Source: Bilabrum cf. latius (lineage: Eukaryota). Taken from it: a stretch of DNA of 29,662 nucleotides. Positions 2-28,402 of this stretch are shown piece after piece. How positions within the stretch are numbered: the stretch's first letter is position 1; each line of letters starts with the position of its first letter. The notes beneath the pieces are model-generated. The model ran no database searches and was not told the origin of the DNA. It worked only from the letters and a program-made list of their open reading frames with translations. Position numbers and translations under genes: made by a program. The stretch spans positions 1,426,001 to 1,455,662 of the forward strand of contig OZ237741.1 in the NCBI GenBank assembly GCA_965178125.1, written 5' to 3'.

Positions 2-2604
2 GATCTGATTCAGCAGCGCAACATCGAAATTCAGTAGCTGCGCGAAGCTATTGTGCAGCTTCAGGCGGACGCAGAGGGGACCACCTTAGACTCGTCTCGT
101 CGCGCACTGCAGGACGCCGGCGGCGGATCCGACGAGCGGGACAGTGGCGAGCTGCGGTCGCCTGCCAATGCGAGAAGCCTGGGTGCGTCTCTTGACCACC
201 CGAGGTACTTGACGGTCGACATCGACCTGGACGACGGCCCCTGGCAGCCGAAGTACTCTACCGTGCTGTTCCACCGCCCTAGGCCGCAGCCTGGTTGGTT
301 CAACCTGAACGACACGGAGCAGCTGTCCGAATGCCCCGAGCTTTTCCGCATCGAAGATCGTGCGTAGTGCGTCGTGCCTTGTGACCCTATATGGGCGTGT
401 ACCGGGGACAACTTCTGCGCCACAGGCTACAGAAGCGTCGGTCCCGAGTGGAGATGCAACGCCTGCGACGAGGGCTACTACCGCCGGGCTGGGGAATGCG
501 TAGAGTGCCCCGACAATCCGTGGATCCTGATCGCAGTATTCATCATCATCATGATCTGTGGCGTGGGGTTCGTTTACTTTCTGGCCAAGTACAACATCAA
601 CCTGGTTCTGACCACACTGGGAATGGACTTTTTCCAGGTACTCGCTTTATTCGCCCAGTCACGGGTTCCCTGGCCCCCTGTGCTGGAGGAGATCCTGCAC
701 GTGCTGTCCGCGTTCAACCTCAACATTGAGATCACCGCACCCGAGTGCACGGTGCCCGACCTCAGCTACATGTCCAAGTGGGTGTTCATCATGATGCTGC
801 CCGTAGCCGGTCTCGTGTGCCTCTCGCTCGTGTACTTCAGCGTGTCCGTGTACGAGCACTGCATCAAGGGCAAGACCAGGACCGAGGCATGGTACGGTCA
901 GCACCTGAACAGGTGCATCTCCATGTTCCTCGTTGGCGGGTACATCTTGTATCTCATCCTCTCCAGGACGTCCTTTGACGTGCTCAACTGCTAGGTGAGG
1001 CGCTTGAGTTTGCTGCTGCCTGTTGCTTTGACCACTTTGTGCTTGCCTGTGTACCGTGACTCTATCGCGTCGTTCGAAATTCCCGTATCTCGCAGCCGAC
1101 GACCCCTCCAGATGGCCGCCTGTACCTCCAGGTTGTGTTCGAGCCGTGCAGCAAGCCCGGCGGGGTGCATCGCACGCTTCTTGGCCCCGCCATTATCACC
1201 ATGCTGGTGTACGGCTTGGGGTTCCCCGCGATCGTGTTCTACGTGCTGTACACCAACCATGACCTCATCATGGAGGACCAGCTGCTGCGTGCCATGAGGA
1301 TGGGCGAGGACACTGTGACAAACCCTCACGCGCACACGATTCGCAGGAGGTACTCTAAGATGTACTTCGCATTCAAGCCCATCGGTTACCGCATCTACTG
1401 GATGCTGGCGCTGATTGCTCGCAAGTTCTTCTTCGCGCTGACGTCACTGCTGTTCGTGCGCAACGCGGTGATGCAGCTGTCCATGTCTCTCCTCGTGATG
1501 TTCGCCGCCTTCGCGGCTCAGACGAGGTTCCACCCTTTCATGTCACCGGACGAGATGGAGGACACGCTTAGGCAGCACAAGCGGCTGTCATTCGACCCCA
1601 GCTCGCCCCACTCCAAGCTGGCAGCAACCATCAAGTCGGTGGTGCAGAAGGGCAGGAAGCGGGCCACGTACGGACAGGGCTTCCAGAGGCTGACCGAGTC
1701 ACCCAACCTGCTCGTGCAGTTCGGTGGCACAGTGATGGGGGCCGCCATTAACTACAACACCATCGAGTCCGTGCTGCTAGGATCTGCCGTGCTGGTCAAC
1801 CTGAGCGGCATTATGTTCAGCTCGGGCCAGCTTAACACGGACGAGACGGGTGAGTACTATGCTGGGTACAGGGACACTCTCATCGCGCTGACTCTGGTGA
1901 TTATTTTCGGCACACTGATCTACTTCTTTGCGGTGTTTGCGTACGACATCTACACGCTCTGTGCGTCGGCCCAGGAGGCAGAGGCAGGGGCCGGGAAGAG
2001 TGGAAAGAAGGGGAGGCGCAGCTCCAGCGCACCCGGCTCAGGGGCAGCGGCGATGCGCGCAAAGGGCTCTGGATTTTCAGCTGGCTTGCCCGGCGAGGAC
2101 GACCAGATGGTTGGTGTGATCGAGCAGCAGACCAACCCCGTGTTTGCCCAGGCTCATCGCAAGAGCTTGATGACCGACTCTTTAGACGCCGAGGAGGCCA
2201 TGCAGGGCATGAAGGCGCTGCCTGATGAGCAGCAGTGGGCGGTCTTCAGGGAGCAGTACGGCATCCTGCAGCAGCAGGTGAAGGCCCTGACGGAGCAGGC
2301 GCAGGCTGCCAGGGAAAGCTCGGACCGAGCCGAGCTGGCGGAGCAGTCGAGGCCCAGCTCCTCCACAGAGGCGGCAGCCGCGGCGGCGTCTTCAGGTGGG
2401 GGGGTTCAGCGGAACCCGATGGGTAGGCGTGGCCAGCGCAGAGGCCGCAAGAGCATCTTCAGCCCGACGACTTCGGCCAGGGGGGCACTGCAGGCTGGCT
2501 CAGGGATTGAGCCTGGGGCTGGGGCTGGGGCGGGCGAGACTGGGTCTTCTCTGGCTGATCTGCGCAAGGGGGCGCGAGGTCGGTTGGGTGGGACCAAGGC
2601 CTGA
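2..2604 (+). CDS. 5'-partial multi-pass membrane protein with Cys-rich extracellular region and low-complexity/coiled-coil C-tail; exons <2-994 and 1096-2604; needs UAG=sense
   Basis: One frame from position 2 is broken only by TAG at 35 (EIQ*LREAI), 365 (EDRA*CVVPCDP) and 992 (DVLNC*). The TAG at 992 is followed directly by a GTGAGG donor. Intron 995-1095 ends CGCAG and rejoins in frame (PTTPPDGRLYLQVVFEPC). Cys-rich CNACDEGYYRRAGECVECP precedes many hydrophobic helices. Ends TGA 2602-2604. Confidence 0.85.
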
Positions 2605-2992: not shown

Positions 2993-4231
2993 ATGCATTC
3001 GATTCGCTCTGTGTCCCGATCTGCCCTCCGAGCTGCCTCCGGGATCCGGTCGTTCTCTGCTTCCGCTGCCGCCGTGAGATCTGCTGTGCGACGCTACGAC
3101 CGCACGCCCCGATTTTGAGTGGATCTTCAGTTCTTGTGCCTGATCCGTGACATAATCACGAGAGATAGTTTTAATGTAGTTTACCTGTGAATTGCGGCGT
3201 GTTGTGTGAAACTGAAGGGTGGGCCTGCGCTGATCTAAGACTTACGCAATTCTCAAGGTTGCAGAGCCCTTCCTACATGTTTTGCGCAGGGCAAGCGAGT
3301 AGCGGTGCTGGGCGCATCTGGAGGTATTGGTCAGCCAATGTCGTTGCTCCTGAAGCTCGACCCCAACGTCTCGTCTCTGTCGCTGTACGATATCCAGGGA
3401 TCGCCAGGCGTTGCGGCTGACATCGGCCACTGCTGCACTGCCGGCACGGTGGAAGGCTTCGCCGGGGCTGACCAGCTTGATGCTGCCCTCAAGGGTGCGG
3501 ATCTGGTTATTATCCCTGCCGGAGTGCCACGAAAGCCCGGCATGACGCGTGATGACCTGTTCAACACGAACGCGAGCATCGTCAAGCAGCTCGCAGAGGG
3601 ATGCGCCCGTGCCTGCCCCGAGGCTGCCATTGGCATCATCTCCAACCCCGTGAACTCGACTGTTCCGATCGCTGCCGAGGCGCTCAAGGCCGCCGGTGTC
3701 TACAACCCGAAGAAGCTCTTCGGCATCACCACGCTGGACGTGGTGCGCGCCAACAAGTTCGTCGGCGACTCGCAGGGCTGGGACCCCAAGGATGTCGAGG
3801 TCACCGTGGTGGGCGGACACGCGGGCAAGACCATCCTGCCGCTCCTCTCCCGCGTGCAGAACGCGCAGTGGGACCAGGAGACGCTCGAGAAGCTGTACAA
3901 CCGCATCCAGTTTGGCGGGGACGAGGTGGTGCAGGCCAAGGACGGGGCAGGGTCGGCCACCCTCTCCATGGCCTACGCGGGGGCACGGTTCGCCAACTCT
4001 CTGCTGCGTGCCATGGGCGGCGAGCAGGGCGTTAGCGAGTGCGCCTTCGTGGAGTCCTCCGTGACGGAGGCTCCCTTCTTCTCTACCAGGATCGAGCTGA
4101 CCGAGGAAGGCGTGGGCAAGATCCACGAGGTGGGGGAGCTGTCCGAGTGGGAGCAGGCCAACTTCGACGAGATGCTGCCTGTGTTGCAGCAGCAGATCCA
4201 GAAGGGCATCGACTTCGCCAAGGGCAACTGA
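2993..4231 (+). CDS. MDH2: Mitochondrial NAD-dependent malate dehydrogenase (340 aa); exons 2993-3073 and 3290-4231
   Basis: Motifs [66 protein letters not shown] and [15 protein letters not shown]. Exon 1 encodes an Arg/Ser/Ala presequence [27 protein letters not shown]. Phase-0 intron 3074-3289 (GTGAGA...GCGCAG). Ends TGA; no TAG codons. Confidence 0.96.
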
Positions 4232-4421
4232 GCGCGATGGGCTGAGTAGCTCGGTCCCACGGCACCGCAGTGAAGCTCAGCAGCCATGTCTGAATAGCCG
4301 CGTGGGTCAGACGACGCTTGGCATAACTATCCGGTCACTGAGCGAAAGATGGCGTGACTAGCAGTGCATTCCGCTTGTACAGAACGTTCCATGATCAAAA
4401 CTCCCGCGCCACAAGCCACCT

Positions 4422-6107
4422 TCAGACATCACCCCCACCGCTCCCCTCCGCCCTGCGCTCGCCCTCCTGGATGCTCCCGATGGAAGCACCGACACGGACC
4501 TGAGCGTCCCCACCCGCATCCAGACCCACGCTGCCACCCCTGCCTCCCTCCTCCTGCGCGCGTGCGTGCACCAGCAACAGCGGCTCCCGCGCGCCCATTT
4601 CTCCTCCGCCATCCGCGCCGATCGCAGCCGCCCCCGCCCCCTTCCTGCTCTCTAGATCCCCATGCCCTGGCCCCGGGCCCGCCCCGGTGTCTGCCAGATT
4701 CTTGGAGCTCCGCCGAATCGCTGCCGATGACAACGCATCCCAGTCACTGATCAGCACGAAGTAAGCAGCCGTCAGCGTGATGGTGGCATAGCCCGCCACG
4801 AGCGCCCCCCACAGCGCCTCCAGCCCCAGGTGCAGCACCAGCACAAACACGAAGGCCAGCGGCACAGACACGCCCCACGCACCAGGCAGGAAAGATGCCA
4901 TAATGGCCAGCGAGCGCGACTGCCCCTGCAAAATTGCCACCGACACAAAGAATATTGCCAACAGAAAGTACGCAGGACCCACCAGGCGCGACAGCTGCCC
5001 GATGTAATGCAGCACATCGGGGTCTTGGGTGAACACCTGGCCCAGGTGTTGGCCTGCCCCGATCAAGACAGCCGCGATGATTGATCCGATGCAAACGGAC
5101 ACAACAAGGTTAAGCCAAGCGACGAACCGAGCCGCTTGTACCTGGCCTGCACCCAAGTTGTGCCCCACCCGGACCGTCGTGGCAGACACCAGCCCGTACA
5201 GCCCCGACGTCAACAAGAAGAAGACCTGCAGCATCACCTAGTGAGCTGCTAGTGCATGAGGGCCCAGCTCTGCCCCGAGGAAAGACACCAGCTGCAGCTG
5301 AGCGTTCTGTAGCAAGTTGCCAGCCATCAGAGGCAGCAGCCGCTTCACGTGCAGCTCGTACCAACGCGAGGCAATCCACACGTCGGAACCCCCCAGCCCG
5401 CAGAACACGGCGGCTCGGTCCTCCCCGCCCTTCCAAGCCACGTACACCAGCACCATGACAAAAGAGGCCCAACGAGTGACCGACGTGGCGATCGGAGACC
5501 CAATGAACCCGAGACCCTCGAAGCCGAATGCACCAAATATCAGCACGTAGTTGAGCCCAGCATTCACAGCAAGCAGCGAAACGTTGATGACCAATGCTGG
5601 CAATGCGTCTCCACGCCCTTGCAGGTAGTTCTAGATGCACACTCGCCACATCATTGGTGGCAAGGAAACCATAAACCACCGGTTGAACAACCCAGCCTTC
5701 GAGCTCTCCTCGGCTGCATACCCAATGCCGAGCAGCACGTCTTCCGTGTATAGCCATGCAATCATCACTGGCACCAAAGCTGCAGTGCATGAACCCATGG
5801 CGATCCACAGCCAAGAACCTGCGAGCTCCCAGTTGCCGGCGCCCACAGCTTGCGAACAAAGGGCCTTGATGGTGGCTCCATAGGACTGCCACAAGCTGGC
5901 TGATGTGAAGTCTACCCAGACTAGAGCGAGGGCTGCCGAAGCTAGCTCAGATACCCCCAGGTGGCCCAAAAATGCATTGTCAGTCGTCTCGATCCCAAGT
6001 CGAGCCATCAGTGCGATTGCCATCGGCAGGCCAATGCTAACCCATGACACTGCTTCATTCAGCTGCTCCGCGTTCCATCGCTTACAACACCATGAAACGC
6101 TAGACAT
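4422..6107 (-). CDS. MATE-family (multidrug and toxic compound extrusion) transporter, copy A, 561 aa with two in-frame TAG
   Basis: ORFs 5631-6140, 5238-5603 and 4422-5237 share a frame and are separated only by TAG at 5631 and 5238. MATE motifs: FLGHLGVSELASAALA, LCSQAVGAGN, NYVLIFGAFGFEGLGFIGSPIATS, LAAH*VMLQ, VRVGHNLGAG. Ends TGA. Confidence 0.92.
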
Positions 6108-6228
6108 CACTGCATCAAATAAGCAGACACTACGACACAAAGTCTCTCATCTGCCGTAGAGTTACGATCCACTATTGATGGGTTGTCTTCATCTTCGCTT
6201 CAAGTTGCCAGACAAGTAATCTAATTGC

Positions 6229-6298
6229 CTTCGACAAGATGCTGCCTGTGCTGCAGCAGCAGATCCAGAAGGGCATCGACTTCGCCAAGGGCAACTGA
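6229..6298 (+). pseudogene. Duplicated 3'-terminal fragment of the MDH gene ([22 protein letters not shown])
   Basis: Copy of 4162-4231 with two substitutions and no upstream MDH sequence. Confidence 0.85.
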
Positions 6299-6488
6299 GC
6301 GCGATGGGCTGAGTAGCTCGGTCCCACGGCACCGCAGTGAAGCTCAGCAGCCATGTCTGAATAGCCGTGTGGGTCAGACGACGCTTGGCATAACTATCCG
6401 GTCACTGAGCAAAAGATGGCGTGACTAGCAGTGCATTCCGCTTGTACAGAACGTTCCATGATCAAAACTCCCGCGCCACAAGCCACCT

Positions 6489-8174
6489 TCAGACATCACC
6501 CCCACCGCTCCCCTCCGCCCTGCGCTCGCCCTCCTGGATGCTCCCGATGGAAGCACCGACACGGACCTGAGCGTCCCCACCCGCATCCAGACCCATGCTG
6601 CCACCCCTGCCTCCCTCCTCCTGCGCGCGTGCGTGCACCAGCAACAGCGGCTCCCGCGCGCCCATTTCTCCTCCGCCATCCGCGCCGATCGCAGCCGCCC
6701 CCGCCCCCTTCCTGCTCTCTAGATCCCCATGCCCTGGCCCCGGGCCCGCCCCGGTGTCTGCCAGATTCTTGGAGCTCCGCCGAATCGCTGCCGATGACAA
6801 CGCATCCCAGTCACTGATCAGCACGAAGTAAGCAGCCGTCAGCGTGATGGTGGCATAGCCCGCCACGAGCGCCCCCCACAGCGCCTCCAGCCCCAGGTGC
6901 AGCACCAGCACAAACACGAAGGCCAGCGGCACAGACACGCCCCACGCACCAGGCAGGAAAGATGCCATAATGGCCAGCGAGCGCGACTGCCCCTGCAAAA
7001 TTGCCACCGACACAAAGAATATTGCCAACAGAAAGTACGCAGGACCCACCAGGCGCGACAGCTGCCCGATGTAATGCAGCACATCGGGGTCTTGGGTGAA
7101 CACCTGGCCCAGGTGTTGGCCTGCCCCGATCAAGATTGCTGATATTACGAACCCGATGGCAACAGAAACGACAAGATCTAGCCAAGCGACGAACCGAGCC
7201 GCTTGTACCTGGCCTGCACCCAAGTTGTGCCCCACCCGGACCGTCGTGGCAGACACCAGCCCGTACAGCCCCGACGTCAACAAGAAGAAGACCTGCAGCA
7301 TCACCTAGTGAGCTGCTAGTGCATGAGGGCCCAGCTCTGCCCCGAGGAAAGACACCAGCTGCAGCTGAGCATTTTCCAGCAGATTGCCAGCCATCAGAGG
7401 CAGCAGCCGCTTCACGTGCAGCTCGTACCAACGCGAGGCAATCCACACGTCGGAACCCCCCAGCCCACAGAACACGGCGGCTCGGTCCTCCCCGCCCTTC
7501 CAAGCCACGTACACCAGCACCATGACAAACGAGGCCCAACGAGTGACCGACGTGGCGATCGGAGACCCAATGAACCCGAGACCCTCGAAGCCGAATGCAC
7601 CAAATATCAGCACGTAGTTGAGCCCGGCATTCACAGCAAGCAGCGAAACGTTGATGACCAATGCTGGCAATGCGTCTCCACGCCCTTGCAGGTAGTTCTG
7701 AACGCATATGTACCACATCATCGGGGGTAGCGAGAGTAGATACCACCGGTTGAACAACCCAGCCTTCGAGCTCTCCTCGGCTGCATATCCAACGCCGAGC
7801 AGCACGTCTTCCGTGTATAGCCATGCAATCATCACTGGCACCAAAGCTGCAGTGCATGAACCCATGGCGATCCACAGCCAAGAACCTGCGAGCTCCCAGT
7901 TGCCGGCGCCCACGGCTTGCGAACAAAGGGCCTTGATGGTGGCTCCATAGGACTGCCACAAGCTGGCTGATGTGAAGTCTACCCAGACTAGAGCGAGGGC
8001 TGCCGAAGCTAGCTCAGATACCCCCAGGTGGCCCAAAAATGCCGTATCAGTCGTCTCTATCCCTAACCTTGCAACTAATGCGATCGCCATCGGGGTTGCA
8101 ATGCTAACCCATGACACTGCTTCATTCAGCTGCTCCGCGTTCCATCGCTTACAACACCATGAAACACTGGACAT
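6489..8174 (-). CDS. MATE-family transporter, copy B, 561 aa with one in-frame TAG
   Basis: Paralogue of copy A offset by 2067 bp. Single TAG at 7305 (LAAH*VMLQ). It has CAG at 7698 where copy A has TAG. Ends TGA. Confidence 0.92.
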
Positions 8175-8392
8175 TACAACATAGCTAACCCAAGCATTAT
8201 CGCCTTACGACTTTTGGAGAAACCAGGTAACGCAGGGAACTCTAGTGAACGTTCATGGTTTTTTGGTTTTAATGCATTGCACTGTCGTGCTGATACGTTT
8301 GCAGTTCTGGTCAGTTTGCTTTCGTAGCGATTCGACGCATCTCCCCTGTTTGCATCCCGAGGCTTGGGTTTGTACGCGTTGATCGATTTATC

Positions 8393-9620: not shown

Positions 9621-12600
9621 TCAATCACCAATGGTGGGCATGCCGAACCCACCATCGCCGCCACCGCCGCCCGAATCCCCCCATGATCCCATGTCCTACC
9701 AATCATCGTTCCCTCCGTCTCCACCGGCAGGTGGACCAGCGGATGCAGCGTTGTCAAAAGCGGCATCCTGGGCGCCGGCATCAACGCCCCAACCTGTGGC
9801 TGCGCCATCCGCCCCAGAGGCATCGTCGGCACCCTGCTGTGCGCCCCAACCGCCACCATCCTGGTCTCCAGAGGCGTCACCACCGCCAGCTCCCCAGTCC
9901 AAAGGTGCTGCCCCACCATCATCCGCCCCGCCACCGGCTAGCGCGTCACTCCATCCCGTGTCTCCCCCATCATCGTTGGCCAGCCAGCTAGCCTCACCTG
10001 CAGCGGCCCCAGAACCATCCCCTGACTCTCCGGCGCCCTCTTTCGGTATGGCCTCCAGACCCCAACCCCCGCCTCCTCCACCGCTTGCAATGGCGCCGAG
10101 CCCGGGAATCCCACCTTGCTAGTCTTCCACTCCGCCTGCGGCAGGCAACGGCGTGTCACTCGGTTTCGTCGGCAGCCTGTCTTTGATAGCGAAGACTTCT
10201 GTAGTCGGGTACTTGTAACCACTGCCATCGCTTTTCTTTTGGAGTGCAATCTTGTCCCACACCTTGAATCCTTTCTTGTCAAATATCGTCGCAATCTTTG
10301 CTGGGGTCTTGGATCCAGTTGGGTCTCGATTGTCTCTCTAGTAGAAAGCCAACAACTCCCGCAGGTGCATCTGAACCTAGTCAGGTCTAAGACCATGCAA
10401 ATTGAAGCTGGAATCATACGGAATGTCATCCGGATGCGGCGCAGCAGGGGAGGGTGCTGACTCTGGTGCTGGGGCGGGCGCTGGCTCTGGTGCTGGGGCG
10501 GGCGCTGGCTCTGGGGCTGGGGCTGGGGCTGGCTCTGGAGCCGGGGCTGGGGCTGGGGCTGGCTCTGGAGCCGGGGCTGGGGCTGGGGCTGGGGCTGGCT
10601 CTGGAGCCGGGGCTGGGGCTGGGGCTGGTGTGGGCGCGGGTGCGGGCTCTGAACCCGGGGCTGGGGCTGCTAGCTCCGTATCAGGCGCTGGAGCTGACGG
10701 TTGCGGGGCCGGAGACTCTTCATCTGGCTCAACTCTCTCAGTCTGTTCAACAGAGCTAAGCTGGTCACCGACTGATGCCTACCTCTTCATCATGGCAGGC
10801 TGAACGTCCACCGCGGGGCTGTCTCCCGGCTGATTCCCCGATTCTAAATCAATGCCAGGCATAAGGACGTTGAGAGCGTTCCCCTGCTCGGCAGATGGAC
10901 CAGAATCCACGACCATACCTGGTGGAGCTGGAGGCAGCGGCAAAGCGTCGTGTTGCACCCGAAGTGTTGACACAGTTAGCAGCTCTGCATGCCGGGTGGC
11001 TGCGCGCGCTTCGCGCTCAATAGCGTGCAGGACCTGAGCAGAAGGCCTCACTCTAGAGCCGACGTCCCCCGAGCCGCCCTGGTGCTTGCCTACGAAAACC
11101 CCGGCAGTGCGATCAGCGCGCCGTTGACGAGTCTCTGGCGCCCATGACACACACTGCGCCGAAGCTAGCTGTGCCACAACGTGCATGGCAGAGATTCCAC
11201 TCGCACCTGAATGAGCTGCGCCAGCATTCAGCTTGCTCAGCCGTTGCAGCTGTGAGGAACTCCTCTTGGCCCTTCTGCGCGACCTTCGAGAAGTAGCAGA
11301 TCCTCGGCTAAACTCGGCTAATCTTGCATTCTACTTGTGTGCGGTGACTTGGCCCTGTTGATCGGTGGGAAGCACCAAATCGCTTGGTTTCCGCAACACA
11401 GGTGGTTGCCTGGCTGCTGCCAGGCTCGCAACAGCAGCGGCGGCCCTCCGGGTCGCATCACATCTCCGCAACACATGCGTCGCAGCATCCATCGCTTTCG
11501 AAGAAGCTGGCACAGCCTCCTGTAGCTGGCGGTGCATCGATAGCAGCAGCACTGCCTGGCGTCGGCTCGTAGCCAAGTCCCGCCCTACTACTGGCTGCAT
11601 GCCGTCGCGATCGATTGAGCTTATGGCAGCGCGAAGTCCGCCCAGATAGCGCTGCACCGTTGCACATTCAGCGCTTGCAATCGGTAGCTCCTAGCCGGCG
11701 GTCGAAATGGAGGTTTGAACGCTGTTGAGCTGGCGCTTTAGCCGGAGGTGCTGGTCGTCACTACTGGAACCACCAGACTGCCAGGCGGCGGCATCCCCCT
11801 AGATTTCCGCGATCCGGTGGACCACGCCGGACACTGCATGCTTTCGGGTTGCAACCAAAAGCTCCCCACGTGTCAACCCGCGGTACAGCCGTTGCAGCTC
11901 ATGGTGCACAAGACCTGTGCTCAAGTCTGCCCACGCGTCCAGTTGCTAGGCTGCTTCACTCTGATGCGAGGTAATGGCCGCGTTGATTGCCATTTCGGCC
12001 GATGCAAAGCGTCTTGCACCCTGCTTTAACTGGGATCGAGCTGGATCAGATTGCCCATCGACGTGCCTTAATCTACCAAGTAGCTCGTCAGCGAGCTTCA
12101 CAATAGCTTCTCGGCCTCGCTCGCTAGCAGTGTGCAGCGGAGAGGCCAGGGCTTCCATCGAGCCATGCGATGGCACGGAGAGCACTTGCCGGAGGCCATC
12201 ATTGATCCTCTTGAACTCGATGCCGAGAACGGGCTCGATTGCTGCTGCAAATCGCCCCTAGGACTCGGCACCACGGGCGACAAGGCCACCTTCGTCTGCA
12301 CTGCTCTCAATCTGGCTTGGCTACTCATCATCCTACAATGGTTGCGCAGGTGAAAGAGCAAGCTGGCCACCATTTTCAGACCAACCAGACGGAAGCACTG
12401 CTCCCCTTTGAGCGGCTACCGTGGCAACACCAACGGCTCTTGATCGCAGAATAGTTGCCGCGCGCTCTTCATCAGCCGCCTGCGCAGCACAAGCCCGTGC
12501 ACTCTGCACGTTCTCTTGATACCGATCGACGTACCGGCGGTAGTGATACGGCGCATCTCTGGCAGCAAGCTACTCCTGGTCGCTCATGCGTCTTCCGTTG

Positions 12601-15600
12601 GCCGCCTTGTCTTGGACCTCGTCAATCCACGCTGCCTTGTACTGCGCCTCCCGGGCCATGTGCAGATACCGGGACTCGCTCTCTCGCAAGGACCGTGCCT
12701 GTGATGCTCTCCCAATTGCTTGCAGCCTGAGCACCTCCGCAAACTCCATCTGTTGAGCAGGGTCATGCAATGATATGTTGACTTGCTGCGCTGGAGGCAA
12801 CTGTGCAATCGCACCGTTCTCGCCAGCTGCACCTGAGTCTGGCAGAGGGTTCTTACCGGCGGGCTGCTTTCTCGGGGCATCGGATGGCTACCCAGCCGCG
12901 GGAGATTGAGCAGCAGGCGCAACTGCAGAAATTCCTGCTGCTGGATTCGCTGCAGCCGCCGCTGCTGCTACTGGATTCGCTGCAGCCGCTGCTGCTGCTG
13001 CTGCTGCTGCCGGAGCTACACCAGATACTGCCCTGGCATCGGCTGGCGCTAGGCCTGCCTCAGACTCCCCGGACGGACGAGCACCAGCGATTGTCCTAGC
13101 TGCTCCTTCCCCTGGGTGTGCACCTGAGGCACTCAGCAGCCTCTCTCGCACAGCTGCAGCAATGGGGATCAGCGGCGCTGTGATGCTGGCATGAGTCAGA
13201 TCTGTTCCCATACACAGCATACTGCTAAGGTCCTCAGGAATAATGGCAGGGTCTAATGCGCTCTAGCGTCCGATCGCTTCTACTAGCTTCTCGGGCACGA
13301 CGATGCCGGCATCTGACAGCTCAACGCGGCCGAGCCAACTCCTCAAAGCAGCGGATGCAGCAGAAAGCCTCATGCTCAAAATGCTTGCAGGCCCCCTACG
13401 CGCGATGAGTCGCTTCGACTAGATTACGCCTTGTGACGACATCATGAGCATCTGCATTGTAAGCGGCGCTCTCTGCTCGGCTTGAGCGAGGCTGGCGGCG
13501 TTCATCTCATTCACGAAACCACCTCTGCTCAACCACGACGACAGCGCGGAAGGGACAACAAAACTCTGGCCATCCGAGCGAACCGCCACTCGGAAAGGAT
13601 CCAAGTCTGTACCGGGCTGGACCAGCGATGGCGTGCCGCCTTCCACATGCATGGAACGTACGTGATCAGCCAGAGATTGCTGGGACGCGCACATCAGGCC
13701 GCATACGCGGCAACGCTCGGCGGCATCACTGGCAGCTGCCTCATCGGTGCTGCATGAAGCTTCCAGCCACCTTAGCTCAGCAGCGTCATCCGGCTCCTTG
13801 TCGTCGAATTGGTTCTGCTGCGGCTTGGTGCCGAGTGCAGTCGTCGAGGCAGACATGTCGAGGGCTTGAAGCGCTGCTAACCGTGTGCAAACGACAGGAT
13901 CGCCTTGGCCTTGCACTGAGTGGTGCAAAACCGAGCTTGGCTTGCGAGGCTGCATGACCATTGCTACGCCGACCACCCGAGGGAAAACTGAGACGGTTCG
14001 ATGTCCAAGAAGAGTGCTTCTGGCATCATCACACCTGACTGGTTGCCACATTGCGTGCTCGCGTTCGTACATCGCTTTGCCCCTGCTCGCCCATTGCTTC
14101 TTGTTGTCTTCCGGTTCCGTGCCCTCTGGTATCAAGTCGCTGCGAAACCGCTGCCCCGCATCACCGTCATCCCACTCAGTCCCAATTTCATGGGAGTCCG
14201 CGGCAACCTCGTATTGCATCCACGGGTGCACGTCATCGTCTTGCTCAGGGCCCAAACCTGGAGGTGTTGCAGAGCGTTGGGTCCCTGCGTACACTTCATC
14301 ACCAACATCGAGAGATGCCCTTCCGTCGCCGTCCCCATCTGCATCTTCTTCGCTCTCCCGGCCCGCTTCCTACCGGAGAAACTGCACGGCGCCTATGGCT
14401 TCCGGTGGAGCCCCTGCCATCAGCATACGTCCTTCAACAGTAGTCAGCGACTGCCTCCAACGCCTGGCAACCCATGCCAATAGTTGCTCCGATTCAATCA
14501 GGTGGGATATCTCGTCGCTACCACTCGCAAACAACTAGCGGCTGCGCGCGATGGCTGTCCCGCCCCCTGCTGCAGCTATAGCATGAGTTCTTCCACCCGC
14601 GGTGCCACCGCTGGCGTGCAACCCAGCTGCCATGAGGCGTTGGCGCAGAAGCTGGACGTATTTTGGACGCTCCAGCAAAATCGGGGCTGGGGATCCAGAC
14701 GACGCCCCAGCAATCATGCCCAGTGATGGATAGTACTCGAGCTTGTAGGACAACGCCAAATGCCTGCGGAGTTGCTCTGAGCGAGGGTCCAGCCAGCCGC
14801 TGCCTGTACTTCCAGCTTCCCACATTTTACGCTTCAAGTTGAGAATATCGGACTTCATGCACTAAACGTCCTCACCTGCGCCCCAAATCACTGTTCTCCT
14901 CCAGTTGTGTGATTTATGAGGCTGTACCAACTGCCGCTTCCATTTCTCGTAGTCGGTGTTGATCAGCAGACGGGCATCCTTCCCCTACGGCCCAAACCAC
15001 TTTTTGGGAGGTCCAACAGGGATATTGCACAACTCAATCACTGCAAGACAGTGATTGTGCTAGGTTGCTGCAGCTTGCCTCCACTCCTCCATCGATTGCT
15101 TATCCTCGTCCTCGTCCATTTCGAAAGGCCAAAACTTGAAGCCGTACCGCTCCGCATCCGCACAGACCTGTTTGCCCCGCTCTTCCAGCTGTCTGATACG
15201 ATCAGCATTATCTGCACTGCCTCGCAGGGAAGCGTACTCATTCGCGATGCCAGCCACAGCTGCCCCAATTTCATCCGGAAGCCTCCGCCTCCATCCAGCT
15301 AGCAGCATCGTAGTGCTTTGGTTGGACCTGCGCCGCAGGTACTTGGATAGCTGAGCCATGTATGCGCTCCACTCTGCGCGAACTGCAGAGGTGTGTTCAA
15401 AACCTCTGTCCTTGGCCTCAGAGGGCGTCCCCACTGTGTGAGAGCTATGCGCATCGGGGCCATACGCGGCGACCAGCTTGCGAATGGCCTCGTCCTTGGA
15501 CGAAACCGCCCTCTTGCACTCATCGAGCGCTTGAGACAAAGATCTCGGTCCTGACCACGCGAGAACGGCCTGCTCGGACTGCACCAGCCGCTGAACTTTC

Positions 15601-17645
15601 GCATCATCGATGCTGAATCGCTCTCGCACCCACGGGGCCGCACCTGTCGTGGAGTTGGTGCGCAACCAATCTCTGAATCCCGCATCAAGGTGGTCGTCAT
15701 CAGTGCGACGGGCGCGCTCAGCCCGTACCCCCTCGGCATTGAGTGCAGAGACAAGCCCAGCAGGCTCAGCGCCATCTTGCGCATGCGATAGACTATCGAT
15801 AGCTGCGTCAGAGGCCCCACTCCTGCCCTTCATGGAGGCCTTGAGCTCCTCGAGGTCCTCCTTGCTCCATCGCTCAATCGCTCCAGCTTCATCGGAACCC
15901 TTATCCTAGTGGAAAGGGTCATGCAGGTAGTGGCACTCGTAGATCGGGGGCTCGGCCTCAAGCTCTGCTGCCGGCTGAGGGGGCAGCGGGGGGCTCAGCA
16001 GAGGTATGAAGTGCTCGGGCAACACTCCCGCCGCAGTCAGCATGCTGGCCTGGCCCCGTTGCAAGCCTCCTCTCAGAGTCTGATAGATGGGCATGTACCC
16101 CACTTCTCCAGTCTGCAGGCCGATCCACATGCAGTCCGACGTCTTCTCACTGGCATTAAGTGAGTGCTTGCCTGCAGGGGCCAGGCATGCTGCAGATAGC
16201 CCAGGAATCCGCATTGTTAGACTTGGCCACATGGGCTTGCTCGATTCAAACACACCGCCACCCACCGGGGTAAAATCGTGCCGTGCAGCCACGGCGGGCA
16301 CTTGAAAGAGCCACACCGTCTCGTGCTATGCGCTGACCGCAAGCAACGTGTGTGGCTCGCTCGACTCATCAGGCGGGGCACCCTTGCGCGCCAGATGAAG
16401 CTTAGGAGATATTTGGGCGTTGGAGCACAGCTGAATGGAGCTGAGCTCCCCGGTAGCCTGCATGAACTCAAAGGTCCCGTCTTGGCGCACCGGCAACTCT
16501 GGCACTGGCAGCTGGCAGCGTACCCGGATTGCGCCCGGCCATCCAGCTTCAAGCGAGCCAGGCAAGCCGATGCAGAACAAGTCCAAGCATGCATGAATTG
16601 CCATGGATTGCGCTGCGCCAGCAGCTGCAGCTCCGCCCGTAGCAACGCGCGTGCCAGCTGCGGCAATCCAGTGCGTACCGCTGAGCTTGGCGAGTCCTGC
16701 AAAGTTTGCGCGGGGACTAGTGCCCCGGGCTATGTCCCTGCATAGCTAATCAACACCAGCTTGGTCGCCAGAGGGCATTGATATCGCAGAGACCCGTGAT
16801 ACCACGCACGTATCACCTCCTGAGCACGGCAAATGCATGCAGTACGCGCCTGGCTCCTCATCGGGAAGGTCGGAATCGCGTTGTACAGATGCCTATGCCA
16901 CGCCAATGGGATCAAATTTCACTTCAGTGTTCTTTTGTCGCGTTTCGATCGCTTCAGGGGCGAAGGCAGCGATCGGGAGAAGTTTGACGCCTGCGTGAGG
17001 GACAGAGGCATTCGGGCTACACAAGCGTTAATATGCGTGTTGTACCTCATATAATAAAATGAACTAAAATCACTTACCGGACTTGCTCGCGCATGCAAGC
17101 ATTCCAGCGCTTCGCAGCAGCGACATGCCATACACTCCGCCTTCCCCGGAGGGCTTCGAAAAGCTATGCAGTGGTGCTGGCCCCGCATCAGACAGGGTAG
17201 CAAAACAAGACTCCTGCTCATCAGCACCGATCATAACAGGGCACTCATGTTGCTGCATGTATACCCTAGCTTTTGGGGCAGCGACCGATACAGGATCTGA
17301 ACCACATGCGGTCTCAACCCTACCAGCTGTGCCTCTTGGCCCTTGATGGGATCCTTCAGCAGCTCCTGAAATGAGTCTTTCGTCACTTAGCTCTCCTACC
17401 CGCAAGGCTTCCTCGAAAGCAAGCGATTGGACTGCCTGATTCAGCCGCATGCTGGGCAGCCCAACTGAGTGCTGCTTGCCAAGCGGTGAGCAAACTCGAA
17501 GGACCGCTTCACGCTTCTTGGGTCCAAAATAAAGCTTTCCGAACTCTGGTGCTGCATTTTGGGCCTATGCCATGGTGTGATGAGGTACTGGGCTGAGAAG
17601 TGCCTGACCGGTCATCGGGCAAGGCTCCTTGAAATCGTGTTCCAT
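9621..17645 (-). CDS. Giant hypothetical protein (~2,645 aa): C2H2 zinc finger, Pro-Ala-Glu linker, Gly/Asp/Trp-rich tail; exons ~17645-17078 and 16990-9621; start uncertain
   Basis: A 7.37-kb single frame (16990-9621) contains 25 TAG, no TAA and no TGA until tandem TGA-TGA at 9623-9618. One more TAG lies at 17565 in exon 1. The 87-nt intron 16991-17077 (GTAAGT...CACGCAG) removes the only in-frame TAA/TGA and joins CASKSG|VKLLP. Confidence 0.85.
10460..10670 (-). repeat. Coding minisatellite encoding (PAPAPE)n linker
   Basis: GGGGCT/GGCTCTGGAGCC repeats on + read as PAPEPAPAPAPEP in the frame of the giant gene. Confidence 0.85.
13647..13712 (-). other. C2H2-type zinc finger motif within the giant protein
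   Basis: CRVCGLMCASQQSLADHVRSMH matches C-x2-C-x12-H-x4-H. Confidence 0.7.
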
Positions 17646-20398: not shown

Positions 20399-23300
20399 AT
20401 GATCATGAGCCAGTTGAGCAGCCCTGACGTAGGGATATTGCGATAGGTATGTTAAACGTATTCTCTGAATTGCTCACATCCCTGGGCTTCCTGTCGTGCA
20501 ACCGAGCTGTTAGCAACCGTTCGGTCCGATTGCCACGCGCAGGCAAGGAAAGGAAACACAGACGGGCTAAATAGTGAAGTTGACGACGTGTTCTTTCCTA
20601 GGCGCGCTGCCTTAGCGAGCCTTGCAGACAATTACACAGGGGTTTCGAACTCTCCAAGCGGCCCATTGCGCCAAGGTCGCGAGGCGGATAGAAGCATGGG
20701 GCAACAGCCTACGGTTGCGAAGATTCACGGCTCCAGCATCTCGATGGGAACCCAATAGCATCCCTCTATTGGGCCAGAAAACCATCTTGTGCAGGTACCT
20801 GCTGGTTGGGGAGCACCACCTGCCACCGCTGCTGCGCACCATGCCCCGGCTACTAACGGCAGCGCCGCGCGGCCAGAAAGGCCCGCGCTGGGCAGCAGCA
20901 CAGCGAAGAGCGGCCCCGGTAATAGCAGCAGCAAGGACGTATAGTCTGCTTTATATTCTCAAGGGCCCAGCACGGCGCTCGCCTACAGGCCCGCGCACCA
21001 GCACCAGCACCAGCAGGCACAGGTGTAGGCCGGAGGGGGGCCGGGCCAGAGCCGAGCGGCGGTCAGCATCCAGTCGGTGGCTCCTAGTGACCGGCCGACG
21101 CTGGCTCAGCGCATCGGTGTGCTCGATGCGGCCATTGAAACCGACCGCGCCCATGTGTGTGGCTCCATCGTTGTAGCGGGGGTCAGCGTCCCGGCCCCCC
21201 CTCGGCTGGTAGCTCCAACTCACGCACTGCCAACTTTGGCAGACGTGGTACTTGCAATTCCCCACGCAGATTTCACTGATGCAGTCTCAAGAGCAGTTAA
21301 AAAGCTACCCGCTGCCGCTAGAGAGTCGCTGTCATCAGCAGCTGCAGGGATTCAGCCTGCCCAGCAAGGCGCCGAGCAGGTGCGCGGGCTGGATGTGTGG
21401 CGCCCGCATCCGTGCGTGCTGCCTGGAGGTTGCGACGAGGCCATGACTTCCAAGTGCAGGGCCGTGACTGGCGGTGCGGTGCTGGAGCGCAAATCAAATG
21501 AGGCATTTGGTACATGCGGGGCCATGGGGGAGGGTGCTGATGGTCTCTCGCAGGCATCGCTGCAACCCAGCGCATCGGCAGCCACCGGCAGAACGAGTCT
21601 CGGAGGCACTTCTAAGGCAAGTCGCAAGGACAAAAGCCTTGGGTTGTTGTGCGAAAAGTGAGATGGATCATTCGTAGTCGCGCTGCTTGATGTGACCGGA
21701 CTCTTGCTTCCTCCTGCACTCGCTGCCGTAATATGTTGCCACGTGTTTTTGATTCATGATGGATTGACCACCCCCCCCTCGCAGTTTTCTCGCACATTTT
21801 GGTCGCGGGGAGATTCTGGAGTTCTAGCTCGACGATGTTGCCACGGTTCTGGACGTGGAGCGCAGGCGTGTGTACGACGTCATCAATATTCTTGAGGCGC
21901 TGCGGATGACTTCACGAAAGGAGAAGAACAAGTACGTGTGGCACGGTACAGGCGGTCTTCCTGCTGTGCTCCAGCATCTGCAGAACCAAGCCATGCAGGA
22001 TGGCAGCAACGTGCTCCCAGGTAGCCCCGATGAGCCTCCACAGCCGCACTCTATGCACTGCCGCGTGCAAACCGCCCCGGGCATGCACATCGAGGTGTTT
22101 GCAGAGGAGTCTGCAGATGCACCTTGTTCCACCAATAGCAACCTAGGATCAAAAAGGGGCAGACAGGGGACTACGGTTGGAGACTGCCCGGATCCCAAGC
22201 GAAGAGCGGTTGGGGAATCTGGTTTGTCGAAGCAGAACGACGAGGACCCACCGGCAGTCGAGGTGGACTGCATTACCGAAGCGGATCAAGACCTAATGCC
22301 ACCTGATAAGCTCCGGCAAAGTGCCAACATTTGCAGCCAAGCATGTGTGGCTGCTTCCGTTGCGAGGGCTACACTGAGCTGGAAGAACGACGTGCTCTCG
22401 TTCCGGGACTCGAGGGCCGAGTCGGATGCGGCCTCGAGTGCCAAGCGGGACAAGAGCCTCGGCACCCTGGCCCAGCGCTTTGTACAGCTCTTTCTTGTGG
22501 GCAGGAGCGTGCTGGCCCTGGAACACGCCGCCAAGATCCTCATGGCTGCATCGGGGCTGGACGCCTCCTCAGTGGATCCCACAGAGGCTGCCTTCAAGAC
22601 CAGAGTACGGAGACTGTACGACGTTGCCAACGTGCTGCAATCCCTACGGTTGGTCACCAAAGTGACATTTGCAGAGACATCATGCGCTCGAAAGCCTGCA
22701 TTCGCATGGCGGGGCCTGGGTGCTGTGCCTTTGTTACCTGGGCGAGCAGCACTGGCGGTTCGTGATGAGATTCGAGATGTGGCTGCTGGTCGGGCTTCAA
22801 GCGATGGGTCGGGGATTTGGCGATCCAACATAGCAACCTCTGCCAAATTAGCCCAAAGAGTTGGCCCTAATTCAGCGCGGTGCGCTGTAAGCGGCAGTGC
22901 AGGCTAGCCCGCGAGTCGGCAGCACACATCATCGGCTTCAGTCGTAAGCATGCCGCCAAACGACTCAGCGCGGGCGTATGCACTGTCTCACAAAGCAGTT
23001 CCATTGCCAGCAACTGCTGCGGGCGACGCAAGGCTGCTGGGTGGCGGGCACGGCTGCTCGAGTGACTCGCAGGGCAGCACCGTCGTGCAACCTGCTTAGG
23101 GTTTCGGCAACCTCAGTCTCGAGTAGAAGTTCGAGATGGGCCGTAGAATCGCAAACGAGGAGGCCCACACGTGCATGTCGCCTGCACCAGTTGGTTCACC
23201 GTCATCTCGATCCACATCGAGACGTACTGCGAAGGGCAAGCTATCGTATGAAGGGATCGATGCGACTCCATAGCAACTGCAGGCCATCGGGTCTAGCCCA

Positions 23301-24224
23301 TATGGCATGCCAGGCAGCGCAGTACCCGCTTCTGCCCTTGGCCGTCGGCTCTTTGGCGGTCGCTGGCAGCCTCCAGGATTCCGCACGAGCCACTAGTCCA
23401 CACCAATGACAACAGGCAATTCCGTTGGGACAAAGCCTTGGAACAGAAGTGCCCCTGGGACAACGACTGGCGCTATTGCTGAAGAAAGAGCTCCTAGCTT
23501 CAACCCCAAGCAGGACCCCGAGGACGCACAGAGCCCCCAACTCAACCTCTCGAGCATGCTTGAGAAGGAAGCGGCGCAGGCTGGCTTTAAGGAGAATGCG
23601 TCTCATCAGGAATCAGTGCAGCGATAGGAGCAGGGCAGCGATTTTCCCGACCAAGAGCTTGTTGATGTTGACCCGGCAGCGCGTGAGAGCTCCGCAAAGC
23701 CAGCATCCGTTCTCACCGTCTTTTTGAAGAGATCGCAGTCTCGCACGGGGGGGCGTGGAGAGGAACGAGAGGCAGGGCTGTAGTCGCCCTCCAGCCCTCG
23801 AGCTGTTCGTGCACCTTCAGCTTCGACGGATGACCGCGAAGACCAAGAGCTCGAGGAGGGTAGTCTATGTGCAGTGCAGCCGGCAGCGTCATCATCTACT
23901 GGTAGGAGTGCATCAAGCTCGGGGCAGGTGCACTCAGCCGGGCAAGGGCCTCAGCAACTGACATCAACAAGCAGCTCAGTCGGTGCACTCGTGTCAATGC
24001 CTAAGCCTGAGAGCGCTTCTTCGGTAGCCTACAGGACAGTCAAGATGCATGCTGCAGCTCGTGGTGTGTCAGTAGAACAGGTAATCGTTGCGATGCGGAA
24101 GCAACGAGACGATGCTCTTGCCGTTCTAGCAAGTGGCACAGCACTCTAGCCATCTCAGGAAGCCGTGATTACCCTTTTGCAGCAAATTGAGTCGGAGCAC
24201 CAACGCTCGACCGGGACGGAGTAA
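20399..24224 (+). CDS. Atypical E2F transcription factor (E2F7/8 / DEL type, two winged-helix DNA-binding domains), ~1,200 aa; exons ~20399-20446, 20543-21657, 21785-24224; start uncertain
   Basis: DBD1 is SRKDKSLGLLCE|NFL...F*LDDVATVLDVERRRVYDVINILEAL...YVWHG. DBD2 is KRDKSLGTLAQRFVQLF...FKTRVRRLYDVANVLQSL...KPAFAWRG. Introns 20447-20542 and 21658-21784 are GT-AG. There are 13 in-frame TAG, one inside DBD1 (21825). Ends TAA 24222-24224 with TGA two codons later. Confidence 0.88.
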
Positions 24225-24294: not shown

Positions 24295-25679
24295 AGCGCT
24301 CGCTCCCGTAGCCTGCACACTCTCCAGCAGCATGGGTACCACCCTCATCCAGCGCTCGCTCCCGTGGCCTGCACACTCTCCAGCAGCATGGGTACCACCC
24401 TCATCCAGCGCTCGCAACCGTAGCCTGCACACTCTCCAGCAGCATGGGTACCACCCTCATCCAGCGCTCGCTCCCGTGGCCTGCACACTCTCCAGCAGCA
24501 TGGGTACCACCCTCATCCAGCGCTCGCTCCCGTAGCCTGCACACTCTCCAGCAGCATGGGTACCACCCTCATCCAGCGCTCGCTCCCGTGGCCTGCACAC
24601 TCTCCAGCAGCATGGGTACCACCCTCATCCAGCGCTCGCTCCCGTGGCCTGCACACTCTCCAGCAGCATGGGTACCACCCTCATCCAGCGCTCGCAACCG
24701 TAGCCTGCACACTCTCCAGCAGCATGGGTACCACCCTCATCCAGCGCTCGCTCCCGTGGCCTGCACACTCTCCAGCAGCATGGGTACCACCCTCATCCAG
24801 CGCTCGCTCCCGTGGCCTGCACACTCTCCAGCAGCATGGGTACCACCCTCATCCAGCGCTCGCAACCGTAGCCTGCACACTCTCCAGCAGCATGGGTACC
24901 ACCCTCATCCAGCGCTCGCTCCCGTGGCCTGCACACTCTCCAGCAGCATGGGTACCACCCTCATCCAGCGCTCGCACCCGTAGCCTGCACACTCTCCAGC
25001 AGCATGCGTACCACCCTCATCCAGCGCTCGCTCCCGTGGCCTGCACACTCTCCAGCAGCATGGGTACCACCCTCATCCAGCGCTCGCTCCCGTGGCCTGC
25101 ACACTCTCCAGCAGCATGGGTACCACCCTCATCCAGCGCTCGCAACCGTAGCCTGCACACTCTCCAGCAGCATGGGTACCACCCTCATCCAGCGCTCGCT
25201 CCCGTGGCCTGCACACTCTCCAGCAGCATGGGTACCACCCTCATCCAGCGCTCGCACCCGTAGCCTGCACACTCTCCAGCAGCATGCGTACCACCCTCAT
25301 CCAGCGCTCGCTCCCGTGGCCTGCACACTCTCCAGCAGCATGGGTACCACCCTCATCCAGCGCTCGCTCCCGTGGCCTGCACACTCTCCAGCAGCATGGG
25401 TACCACCCTCATCCAGCGCTCGCAACCGTAGCCTGCACACTCTCCAGCAGCATGGGTACCACCCTCATCCAGCGCTCGCTCCCGTGGCCTGCACACTCTC
25501 CAGCAGCATGGGTACCACCCTCATCCAGCGCTCGCACCCGTAGCCTGCACACTCTCCAGCAGCATGCGTACCACCCTCATCCAGCGCTCGCTCCCGTGGC
25601 CTGCACACTCTCCAGCAGCATGGGTACCACCCTCATCCAGCGCTCGCTCCCGTGGCCTGCACACTCTCCAACAGCATGG
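24295..25679. repeat. Subtelomeric 56-bp tandem repeat, 24.7 copies
   Basis: Unit AGCGCTCGCTCCCGTGGCCTGCACACTCTCCAGCAGCATGGGTACCACCCTCATCC. The last copy is truncated into the telomeric tract. Confidence 0.97.
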
Positions 25680-26286
25680 TTAGGGTTAGGGTTAGGGTTA
25701 GGGTTAGGGTTAGGGTTAGGGTTAGGGTTAGGGTTAGGGTTAGGGTTAGGGTTAGGGTTAGGGTTAGGGTTAGGGTTAGGGTTAGGGTTAGGGTTAGGGT
25801 TAGGGTTAGGGTTAGGGTTAGGGTTAGGGTTAGGGTTAGGGTTAGGGTTAGGGTTAGGGTTAGGGTTAGGGTTAGGGTTAGGGTTAGGGTTAGGGTTAGG
25901 GTTAGGGTTAGGGTTAGGGTTAGGGTTAGGGTTAGGGTTAGGGTTAGGGTTAGGGTTAGGGTTAGGGTTAGGGTTAGGGTTAGGGTTAGGGTTAGGGTTA
26001 GGGTTAGGGTTAGGGTTAGGGTTAGGGTTAGGGTTAGGGTTAGGGTTAGGGTTAGGGTTAGGGTTAGGGTTAGGGTTAGGGTTAGGGTTAGGGTTAGGGT
26101 TAGGGTTAGGGTTAGGGTTAGGGTTAGGGTTAGGGTTAGGGTTAGGGTTAGGGTTAGGGTTAGGGTTAGGGTTAGGGTTAGGGTTAGGGTTAGGGTTAGG
26201 GTTAGGGTTAGGGTTAGGGTTAGGGTTAGGGTTAGGGTTAGGGTTAGGGTTAGGGTTAGGGTTAGGGTTAGGGTTAGGGTTAGGGT
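25678..26286 (+). repeat. Telomeric tract 1 (internal), ~101 x TTAGGG
   Basis: Perfect TTAGGG array. Confidence 0.98.
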
Positions 26287-27945: not shown

Positions 27946-27946
27946 T

Positions 27947-28402
27947 TTAGGTTAGGGTTAGGGTTAGGGGTTTGGGTAGGGTTAGGGTTAGGGTTAGGGT
28001 TAGGGTTAGGGTTAGGGTTAGGGTTAGGGTTAGGGTTAGGGTTAGGGTTAGGGTTAGGGTTAGGGTTAGGGTTAGGGTTAGGGTTAGGGTTAGGGTTAGG
28101 GTTAGGGTTAGGGTTAGGGTTAGGGTTAGGGTTAGGGTTAGGGTTAGGGTTAGGGTTAGGGTTAGGGTTAGGGTTAGGGTTAGGGTTAGGGTTAGGGTTA
28201 GGGTTAGGGTTAGGGTTAGGGTTAGGGTTAGGGTTAGGGTTAGGGTTAGGGTTAGGGTTAGGGTTAGGGTTAGGGTTAGGGTTAGGGTTAGGGTTAGGGT
28301 TAGGGTTAGGGTTAGGGTTAGGGTTAGGGTTAGGGTTAGGGTTAGGGTTAGGGTTAGGGTTAGGGTTAGGGTTAGGGTTAGGGTTAGGGTTAGGGTTAGG
28401 GT
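27947..28402 (+). repeat. Telomeric tract 2 (internal), ~75 repeats with degenerate proximal units
   Basis: TTAGGG array with TTAGGGG, TTTGGG and TAGGG variants near 27960-27980. Confidence 0.97.

Follow-up and report, generated by a model that had tools for sequence, protein, structure and literature searches.

The nuclear code of the host, the eukaryote from which the DNA analysed here comes, almost certainly reads UAG as a third, minor glutamine (Gln) codon and keeps UAA and UGA as stops. The window (the whole 29,662-nucleotide stretch analysed) forms the terminal 29.7 kb of contig C7 in a 48.6-Mb genome assembly of 111 contigs, with a GC content near 60% in the host, and the TTAGGG arrays at the contig end, together with GT-AG introns, identify it as nuclear eukaryotic DNA, namely the end of a nuclear chromosome. 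It carries two tandem genes for MATE transporters, and at one codon copy A has TAG where copy B has CAG, a pair that would be an ordinary synonymous difference under this code. A preliminary description of the window had equated TAG with Gln from this pair and from a second TAG that both copies share, and all four codons are confirmed on the minus strand. The features concerned are:

4422..6107, minus strand: MATE transporter copy A, 561 codons, two in-frame TAG, TGA end
6489..8174, minus strand: MATE transporter copy B, 561 codons, one in-frame TAG, TGA end
5631..5633, minus strand: TAG, copy A codon 159 (WRVCI-TAG-NYLQGRG)
7698..7700, minus strand: CAG, copy B, partner of the TAG at 5631 (WYICV-CAG-NYLQGRG)
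5238..5240, minus strand: TAG, copy A codon 290 (LAAH-TAG-VMLQ)
7305..7307, minus strand: TAG, copy B codon 290 (LAAH-TAG-VMLQ), no change in the X5 and X6 contigs
4162..6105 (approximate ends), no strand: tandem duplication unit one, comprising the malate dehydrogenase 3' end, the spacer and MATE A; unit two lies at about 6229-8172

TAG in dyneins and paralogues

The assignment to Gln is borne out by genome-wide tests on dyneins and on paralogues. The dynein set comprised 18 loci in 39 segments and 98,256 codons (3608 CAG, 641 CAA and 430 TAG, so that TAG makes up about 9% of the Gln codons), aligned with 120 outside homologues that were found with X at TAG. Scoring was confined to columns with 70% conservation or more, a cover of 60 or more homologues and well-aligned surroundings, a filter that 379 of the 430 TAGs fail. 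At the 51 conserved columns that bear TAG the homologues have Gln 32 times, Glu 8 times, and Ile, Pro, Asp, Leu, Ser, Asn, Val, Phe, Arg, Gly and Tyr once each, while the control codons fall on Gln columns in 293 of 564 (CAG) and 34 of 69 cases (CAA) and each of the 61 sense codons returns its standard residue from the same alignment (61/61). Scored as a profile, TAG fits Gln better than the next residue, Glu, by 88 log units and better than Tyr by 175.

The paralogue set held 29 open reading frames (ORFs) from a large membrane-protein family and the MATEs, four ORFs having been dropped before the count as off-frame or without a family partner. As the preliminary description had expected of such a comparison made genome-wide, TAG alternates with Gln in 57 of the 72 variable columns (CAG 55, CAA 7; 78 TAG columns in all). 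The single-base partners of TAG are CAG 55, GAG 5, TCG 2 and TAC 1, with TGG, TTG, AAG, TAT and TAA at zero; TGG and TAA are also reached by transitions and yet are never seen, so mutation bias does not explain the CAG partner. As controls, CAA takes part in Gln-type swaps in 54 of 79 cases, and TAC differs in its partners (TAT 50 and TAG 1 of 110). In both kinds of comparison, then, TAG acts as a Gln codon, as far as sequence comparison can establish it. In-frame TAG also occurs inside Prp8, GluRS, eRF1 and every dynein examined; Prp8, with 3 TAG only, was left out of the scoring.

The MATE copies and their columns

With TAG read through, both MATE copies give a full two-domain match to MatE (PF01554; E 3e-42 and 3e-43), at 144.5 and 147.8 bits against a Pfam cut-off of 24.9 and in two stretches per copy, and the tandem paralogues of the preliminary description are a real duplicate. 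The copies are spaced by 2067 bases and their coding sequences are 95.8% identical; 49 of 562 codons differ, of which 29 are synonymous, 19 non-synonymous and one is the TAG/CAG pair. This pair terminates a patch in which 11 of 15 codons differ by conservative changes. Read depth in run X3 is 69 on the shared part and 35-41 on the flanks and the A-specific junction, and the tandem duplication therefore looks real rather than two alleles assembled in a row. Copy B is covered at 6710-8202 and 6730-8149 by X5 and X6 contigs with zero differences. For 4817-5848 no contig specific to copy A appears in four runs, whose bubble-popped contigs testify to presence only, so that their silence is not evidence; the TAG at 5631 is thus attested by the present assembly alone.

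The differences between A and B cluster in five short patches (codons 26-44, 128-129, 145-159, 264-268 and 332-347) between long identical stretches, a pattern as after gene conversion. The homologue P0003 has the A-type version of patch 332-347.

That the two MATE sites by themselves fix the amino acid, as had been proposed, proved too strong a claim. CAG-to-TAG is the commonest nonsense mutation, a single C-to-T change in a duplicate is compatible with nonsense, and both columns are variable (Gln in 18/150 and 3/150 homologues), which makes the pair thin as proof. The expectation of Gln after AAH holds for the solved NorM chains 3mkt and 9rsj (AAHQVAL), whereas the nearer family has mostly Asn: among 150 homologues the column of 5238/7305 reads Asn 82, Ser 22, Ala 18, Thr 12 and Gln 3. 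The homologues thus mostly lack Gln at these columns, a finding that the preliminary description would have taken against its reading, and the nearest ones have it: the two closest covering homologues, P0001 and P0003, at 5238/7305, and a MATE paralogue on contig C30 together with P0001 and P0016 at 5631. Codon 290 is also TAG in the C30 paralogue (48% identical), and further MATE paralogues have two TAGs on columns with Gln in 108/150 and 105/150 homologues. The copies share their two MatE domains with NorM, whose AAHQV aligns; they are ordinary MATE/NorM members (PF01554) and are relevant here only as markers of the code.

Stops and gene ends

Dynein genes that end within one codon of the homologue end (n=14) close with TGA in 12 cases, TAA in 2 and TAG in none, and the acidic tail of eRF1 closes at TAA. 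A long frame of the window is

9621..17024, minus strand: 2467-codon frame with 25 TAG and zero TAA/TGA, no Pfam match

and the remaining two frames of that interval contain 43 and 99 TAA plus TGA. From these gene ends and this frame it follows that UAA and UAG are uncoupled in the host, UAA and UGA being still stops. The retention of UAA as a stop is the rarer trait, and the preliminary description named neither it nor the lineage nor the decoding components. No dynein among those examined is split by TAA, which closes 1 of 28 frames in a separate count. A TAG that stands four codons ahead of a TGA corresponds to CAA in a paralogue with the identical stop. TAG is found at none of the 14 dynein ends, a small sample, and rare use as a stop may occur; within the final 100 codons of the same dyneins 2 of 41 Gln codons are TAG, against 71 of 1024 upstream, too few to show depletion.

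A tRNA with anticodon CUA

A gene for a tRNA(CUA) was detected at G000:C23:907607-907679; with 69.8 bits it ranks second among 48 Rfam matches, and it is single-copy by DNA search and stands on a nuclear contig that also bears genes. Its product would read UAG, could not pair with UAA, and would be charged by the single, ordinary-looking GlnRS of the host. No tRNA(UUA) was found among the pattern matches scanned, the inventory being incomplete: one search for NUA tRNAs gave 68 matches, of which 34 were scanned by ARAGORN (zero tRNAs), 30 were extra copies of two repeats (one copy each scanned) and 4 were known tRNAs, and another gave 40, of which only the 4 new ones were scanned (zero tRNAs at default or 90% score). 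The Rfam search scored 63 of 780 candidates and recovered a set without Leu and His tRNAs; Trp is absent from the stem comparison below.

Of its 73 positions tRNA(CUA) shares 50 with Tyr(GUA), the nearest nuclear tRNA, in an ungapped comparison, 48 with Gln(UUG) when end gaps are free, 44 each with Gln(CUG) and Glu(CUC), and 43 with Trp. Within its acceptor stem and anticodon stem it shares 10 of 12 pairs with Tyr, both differences being whole-pair swaps, against 6 with Gln(CUG) and 3 with Gln(UUG), and none of 391 non-isoacceptor pairs of tRNAs reaches 9. C1-G72 is confined, among 30 parsed tRNAs, to the CUA and Tyr genes, and their variable loop is of 5 bases where both tRNA-Gln have 4. Weighing against a Tyr origin, the D stem agrees with Gln(UUG) in 4/4 pairs and with Tyr in 1/4, the T loop and G73 are also Gln(UUG)-like, the score over all 21 stem pairs (14 with Tyr) is reached by 5 of 391 background pairs, and the two-stem comparison was chosen post hoc in an inventory without Leu, His and other tRNAs. 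Among listed identity determinants, those of eukaryotic Tyr are A73, C1-G72, G34 and U35, and those of bacterial Gln include G73, G10, U35 and G36, the eukaryotic Gln entry of that list being blank (PMC9976931); tRNA(CUA) has G73, G10 and U35 and lacks A73 and G34.

We tentatively propose, as a possibility that we hold at somewhat less than evenly balanced, that G34C turned a duplicate of tRNA-Tyr(GUA) into an amber suppressor, which then passed from TyrRS to GlnRS through A73 to G73 and a Gln-type D arm; a tRNA-Gln with chance resemblance to Tyr, or a chimera, shares the rest of the probability. Mutants of an E. coli tRNA-Tyr amber suppressor (su3) changed at the discriminator are reported to drift to glutamine. 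Yeast tRNA-Tyr amber suppressor mutants are charged with trace Gln by E. coli GlnRS in the experiments described in PMC1483225, so a switch from Tyr to Gln is chemically plausible. The host tRNA resembles such laboratory suppressors in that CUA supplies U35, and has in addition the bacterial Gln determinants G73 and G10; the laboratory cases differ in being engineered, weak and bacterial, and descent from tRNA-Tyr would be an inference in the host. Panek et al. (2017), in the relevant passage, predicted that such tRNAs arise from tRNA-Gln(CUG) (PMC5304391).

Several other tRNA genes of the host are of note. There are two nuclear tRNA-Ile(GAU) genes (L020 on G000:C32, L052 on G000:C4), which is unusual in eukaryotes, and Ile(AAU) is not among the recovered tRNAs; Ala, Thr and Pro use ANN anticodons. 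A multi-copy tRNA(CAU) (L048 at G000:C3:1096678-1097064, L034, L044, L055-L057) agrees with the adjoining tRNA-Pro(UGG) in its variable loop and in 6 of 7 pairs of the acceptor, the two forming the top non-isoacceptor pair, possibly marking a second anticodon switch in this genome. A 63-base repeat with tRNA-like A and B boxes (L252, G000:C9:4362-4424, and about 17 other places, mostly near contig ends) gave no tRNA call by ARAGORN or Rfam.

Release factor and synthetases

One eRF1 was detected (contig C35). Its changes, in human numbering and with the homologues that have the same residue in brackets, are G29A (0/180), N30D (0/180), I35V (0/192), S60V (1/210), E107Q (1/210), F117P (0/210) and K130H (0/210); G29A and N30D adjoin the GTS loop and S60V turns TASNIKS into TAVNIKS, whereas the Cafeteria eRF1 is canonical at the sites altered in the host. 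This diverged N-domain would have lost most recognition of UAG. The domain itself contains two in-frame TAG, at Q44 (Gln in 180/194 homologues) and at L69, the single finding to speak against Gln, although Gln is a natural variant there (7/76 metagenome loci and chain 8ip8). In yeast, the relevant passages of PMC4381064 report that L69A and other changes increase readthrough, L69A slightly more at UAG, and that N30A has no effect. Given its two in-frame TAGs, an eRF1 that stopped at UAG would truncate its own synthesis, and we infer that UAG codons in the stop-recognition domain lock the code change in. A metagenome scan for close relatives, made with eRF1 exon 3, gave 79 loci, the best at 71% identity over the full exon, and the motif region had no TAG in any of the 76 parsed. 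The host has a single detected copy each of GlnRS and GluRS, and a pairwise view of GlnRS against the human enzyme revealed no telling change.

RNA-like contigs

Two GT-AG introns are missing from contigs of runs X5 and X6, and in X6 the malate dehydrogenase gene is followed by poly(A). One of the introns lies in the first gene of the window:

2..2604, plus strand: large membrane-protein gene, 3' part; exon to 994, GT-AG intron 995-1095, exon 1096-2604
35, 365 and 992, plus strand: in-frame TAG of this gene, that at 992 being the exon's final codon

The X5/X6 joint 992-1094 across this 101-base intron (995-1095) keeps TGC TAG CCG in frame with the 503-codon exon. The X6 contigs cover the in-frame TAGs at 35, 365, 992, 7305, 9696 and 10119 with zero differences, and those of X5 cover 7305, 9696 and 10119 besides the joint. 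Removal of TAG by editing or splicing is unlikely. The TAG at 365 is CAG in a paralogue on contig C3.

In two genes (window 992-994 and L001 1418-1420) an exon closes with TAG and GT follows at once, so that the TAG is readily misread as the gene end. The large protein family to which window 2-2604 belongs, together with L058 and L265-L284, comprises 57 matches of more than 3000 residues; its members match TIG, cadherin and sushi and have a membrane region at the C-terminus, and near-identical pairs are frequent.

Alternative explanations

Some of our data weigh against UAG as a plain Gln codon. TAG falls on Glu columns in 8 of 51 cases, compared with 57 of 633 for CAR (Fisher p 0.13); tRNA(CUA) is not nearer to tRNA-Gln than to tRNA-Tyr; the eRF1 retains GTS, E55, NIKS, S70 and YxCxxxF and has no known UAG-specific change; and one of its own TAGs occupies L69, where homologues have Leu in 206/210 and Gln in 4/210. 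Furthermore, that X5 and X6 are RNA is a conjecture backed by the intron-skipping joints, none of the runs with this sequence being filed as RNA, and the placement of the host given below comes from a single dynein gene tree with few named bicosoecids. The Glu excess, slight as it is, could be read as ambiguity of UAG, with Gln as its chief meaning and a minor share of Tyr, Glu or leaky termination. We consider this improbable, while noting that among the 30 parsed tRNAs C1-G72 is common only to tRNA(CUA) and tRNA-Tyr, that C1-G72 and U35 are listed Tyr determinants in eukaryotes (PMC9976931), and that the highly covered malate dehydrogenase gene has no TAG. Tyr columns, however, hold TAG in 1 of 51 cases and CAR in 5 of 633 (p 0.37), a TAG/TAC swap occurs in 1 of 72 paralogue columns, tRNA(CUA) lacks A73 and G34, the remaining listed Tyr determinants, and the counts near gene ends are too small to speak of depletion.

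If instead TAG were a true stop, the MATE copies, or copy A, would be nonsense pseudogenes, for which a single CAG-to-TAG transition in a redundant copy would suffice and with which the missing copy-A-specific contig (0/4 runs) would agree. This is an explanation to which we give next to no weight in view of the TAGs inside Prp8, GluRS, eRF1 and all dyneins examined, of frames of 2400-3300 codons without TAA or TGA, of TAG at codon 290 in three MATE paralogues down to 48% identity, and of the conservative patch of 11 differing codons in 15 that the TAG/CAG pair closes. Scarcely more probable is a code in which both UAR codons are Gln (NCBI table 6) and TAA is merely rare: TAA is a minor stop (2/14 dynein ends, 1/28 frame ends) and few cases were checked, but it stands exactly at the homologue end in two dyneins, closes the eRF1 acidic tail, splits no dynein and pairs with TAG in 0 of 72 columns, and no tRNA(UUA) was seen among the pattern matches scanned. 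TAA as a Gln codon was rejected on account of its place at dynein and eRF1 ends and because it is never paired with TAG. Finally, TAG might be removed or altered in RNA, by U-to-C editing or tiny introns, and two TAGs do lie at exon ends beside splice donors; against this, X6, with its two intron-skipping joints and poly(A) end, keeps TAG at all six positions covered, X5 keeps it at three and across the joint, and a cognate tRNA exists, which leaves this account barely credible.

Other features of the window

Further genes are:

3305..4231, plus strand: malate dehydrogenase, main exon, zero TAG, TGA end; poly(A) at 4366 in run X6
21855..24224, plus strand: E2F/DP-domain gene, 8 in-frame TAG; TAA ends the frame (end read from the frame alone)

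Window 24295-29662 consists of a 56-base repeat (x24.7) followed by three TTAGGG arrays with 155-base repeat arrays between them.

The host

Cafeteria roenbergensis is the top named match for one host dynein (57%), and Cafeteria that for the host eRF1 C-terminal exon (69%). A FastTree dynein tree (22 sequences, 1630 columns) places the host as sister to Cafeteria plus one further relative with support 1.0, and on this placement we call it a Cafeteria-related (bicosoecid) stramenopile, single-celled like the flagellate Cafeteria itself. A relative by eRF1, P0391, stands at 88% identity. The assembly contains 18S genes of two unlike kinds, 1700-base copies arrayed in tandem on C12 (L011, L012) and one 1802-base gene (L010, G000:C95) on a small, low-complexity contig; the latter gene we take to be dinoflagellate-like and probably a contaminant. 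At least half of the words sampled from window 4400-8200 were found in runs under four organism labels from four studies, which suggests that the host is a frequent passenger in cultures. A mitochondrial contig (L263, L264; G000:C111, 38,401 bases) has a tRNA(UCA) and in-frame TGA, and all 11 of the long frames ending inside the 20 kb read stop at TAA.

Relation to known codes

Nuclear codes in which UAG is Gln and UAA and UGA are stops, equal to NCBI table 15, have been described for Iotanema spirale (Panek et al., 2017; PMC5304391) and for the ciliates Hartmannula sinica, Trochilia petrani and Protocruzia tuzeti (McGowan et al., 2024; PMC11687900). The host shares this code and differs in its unrelated lineage, its GC content near 60% and its main stop, UGA, which is UAA in those ciliates. 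For Iotanema, Hartmannula and Trochilia the relevant passages report no suppressor tRNA, whereas the host has a tRNA(CUA) gene, and Iotanema eRF1 has T32G where the host has an intact GTS with changes flanking it. UAG alone is Leu in the rhizarian exLh and in three phyllopharyngean metagenome-assembled genomes from Tara, and Ser in Scotinosphaera, according to the sections of the same papers on these codes (PMC5304391, PMC11687900). These resemble the host in that UAG is uncoupled from UAA, and exLh eRF1 likewise has a residue other than Leu at position 69 (Ala there, Gln in the host); they differ in the amino acid and in having a tRNA(CUA) that resembles the tRNA of that amino acid, while the host's resembles tRNA-Tyr in two stems. 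Table 6 organisms (Tetrahymena, Paramecium, ulvophytes, hexamitins) also read UAG as Gln via tRNA(CUA), and differ from the host, where UAA is a stop and no tRNA(UUA) was found.

The literature searched, mostly without subscription papers, contained no nuclear reassignment in a bicosoecid or other stramenopile, and a prior description is possible. Term look-ups in PMC5304391, PMC10553269 and PMC12153298 gave no mention of stramenopiles, those in PMC11412368 matched in its references only, and the code passages of PMC6723347 and PMC6972860 concern mitochondria. We take the host for a newly found case, independent of the earlier ones, of a code that is known but rare. The wider proposition, that a nuclear stop codon was reassigned independently in stramenopiles by way of tRNA-Tyr and locked in by the UAGs of eRF1, we regard as possible and put forward with some reserve.

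Only a handful of eukaryotes are known to treat UAG and UAA differently, most of them uncultured or represented by fragmentary data, and the passages on the earlier Gln cases in the papers cited record no decoding tRNA, whereas here tRNA, GlnRS and eRF1 come from one 48.6-Mb assembly, with the standard-code relative Cafeteria and its canonical eRF1 as comparison partner. Gene calling under the standard code would truncate host proteins, a practical matter as host sequence occurs in runs under several organism labels. It becomes testable how eRF1 drops UAG and keeps UAA and UGA with the GTS core untouched, and whether a tRNA that changes its identity can capture a stop codon. If the proposed origin is true, a stop codon would have been captured by a derivative of tRNA-Tyr, and not by one of tRNA-Gln as the literature predicts.

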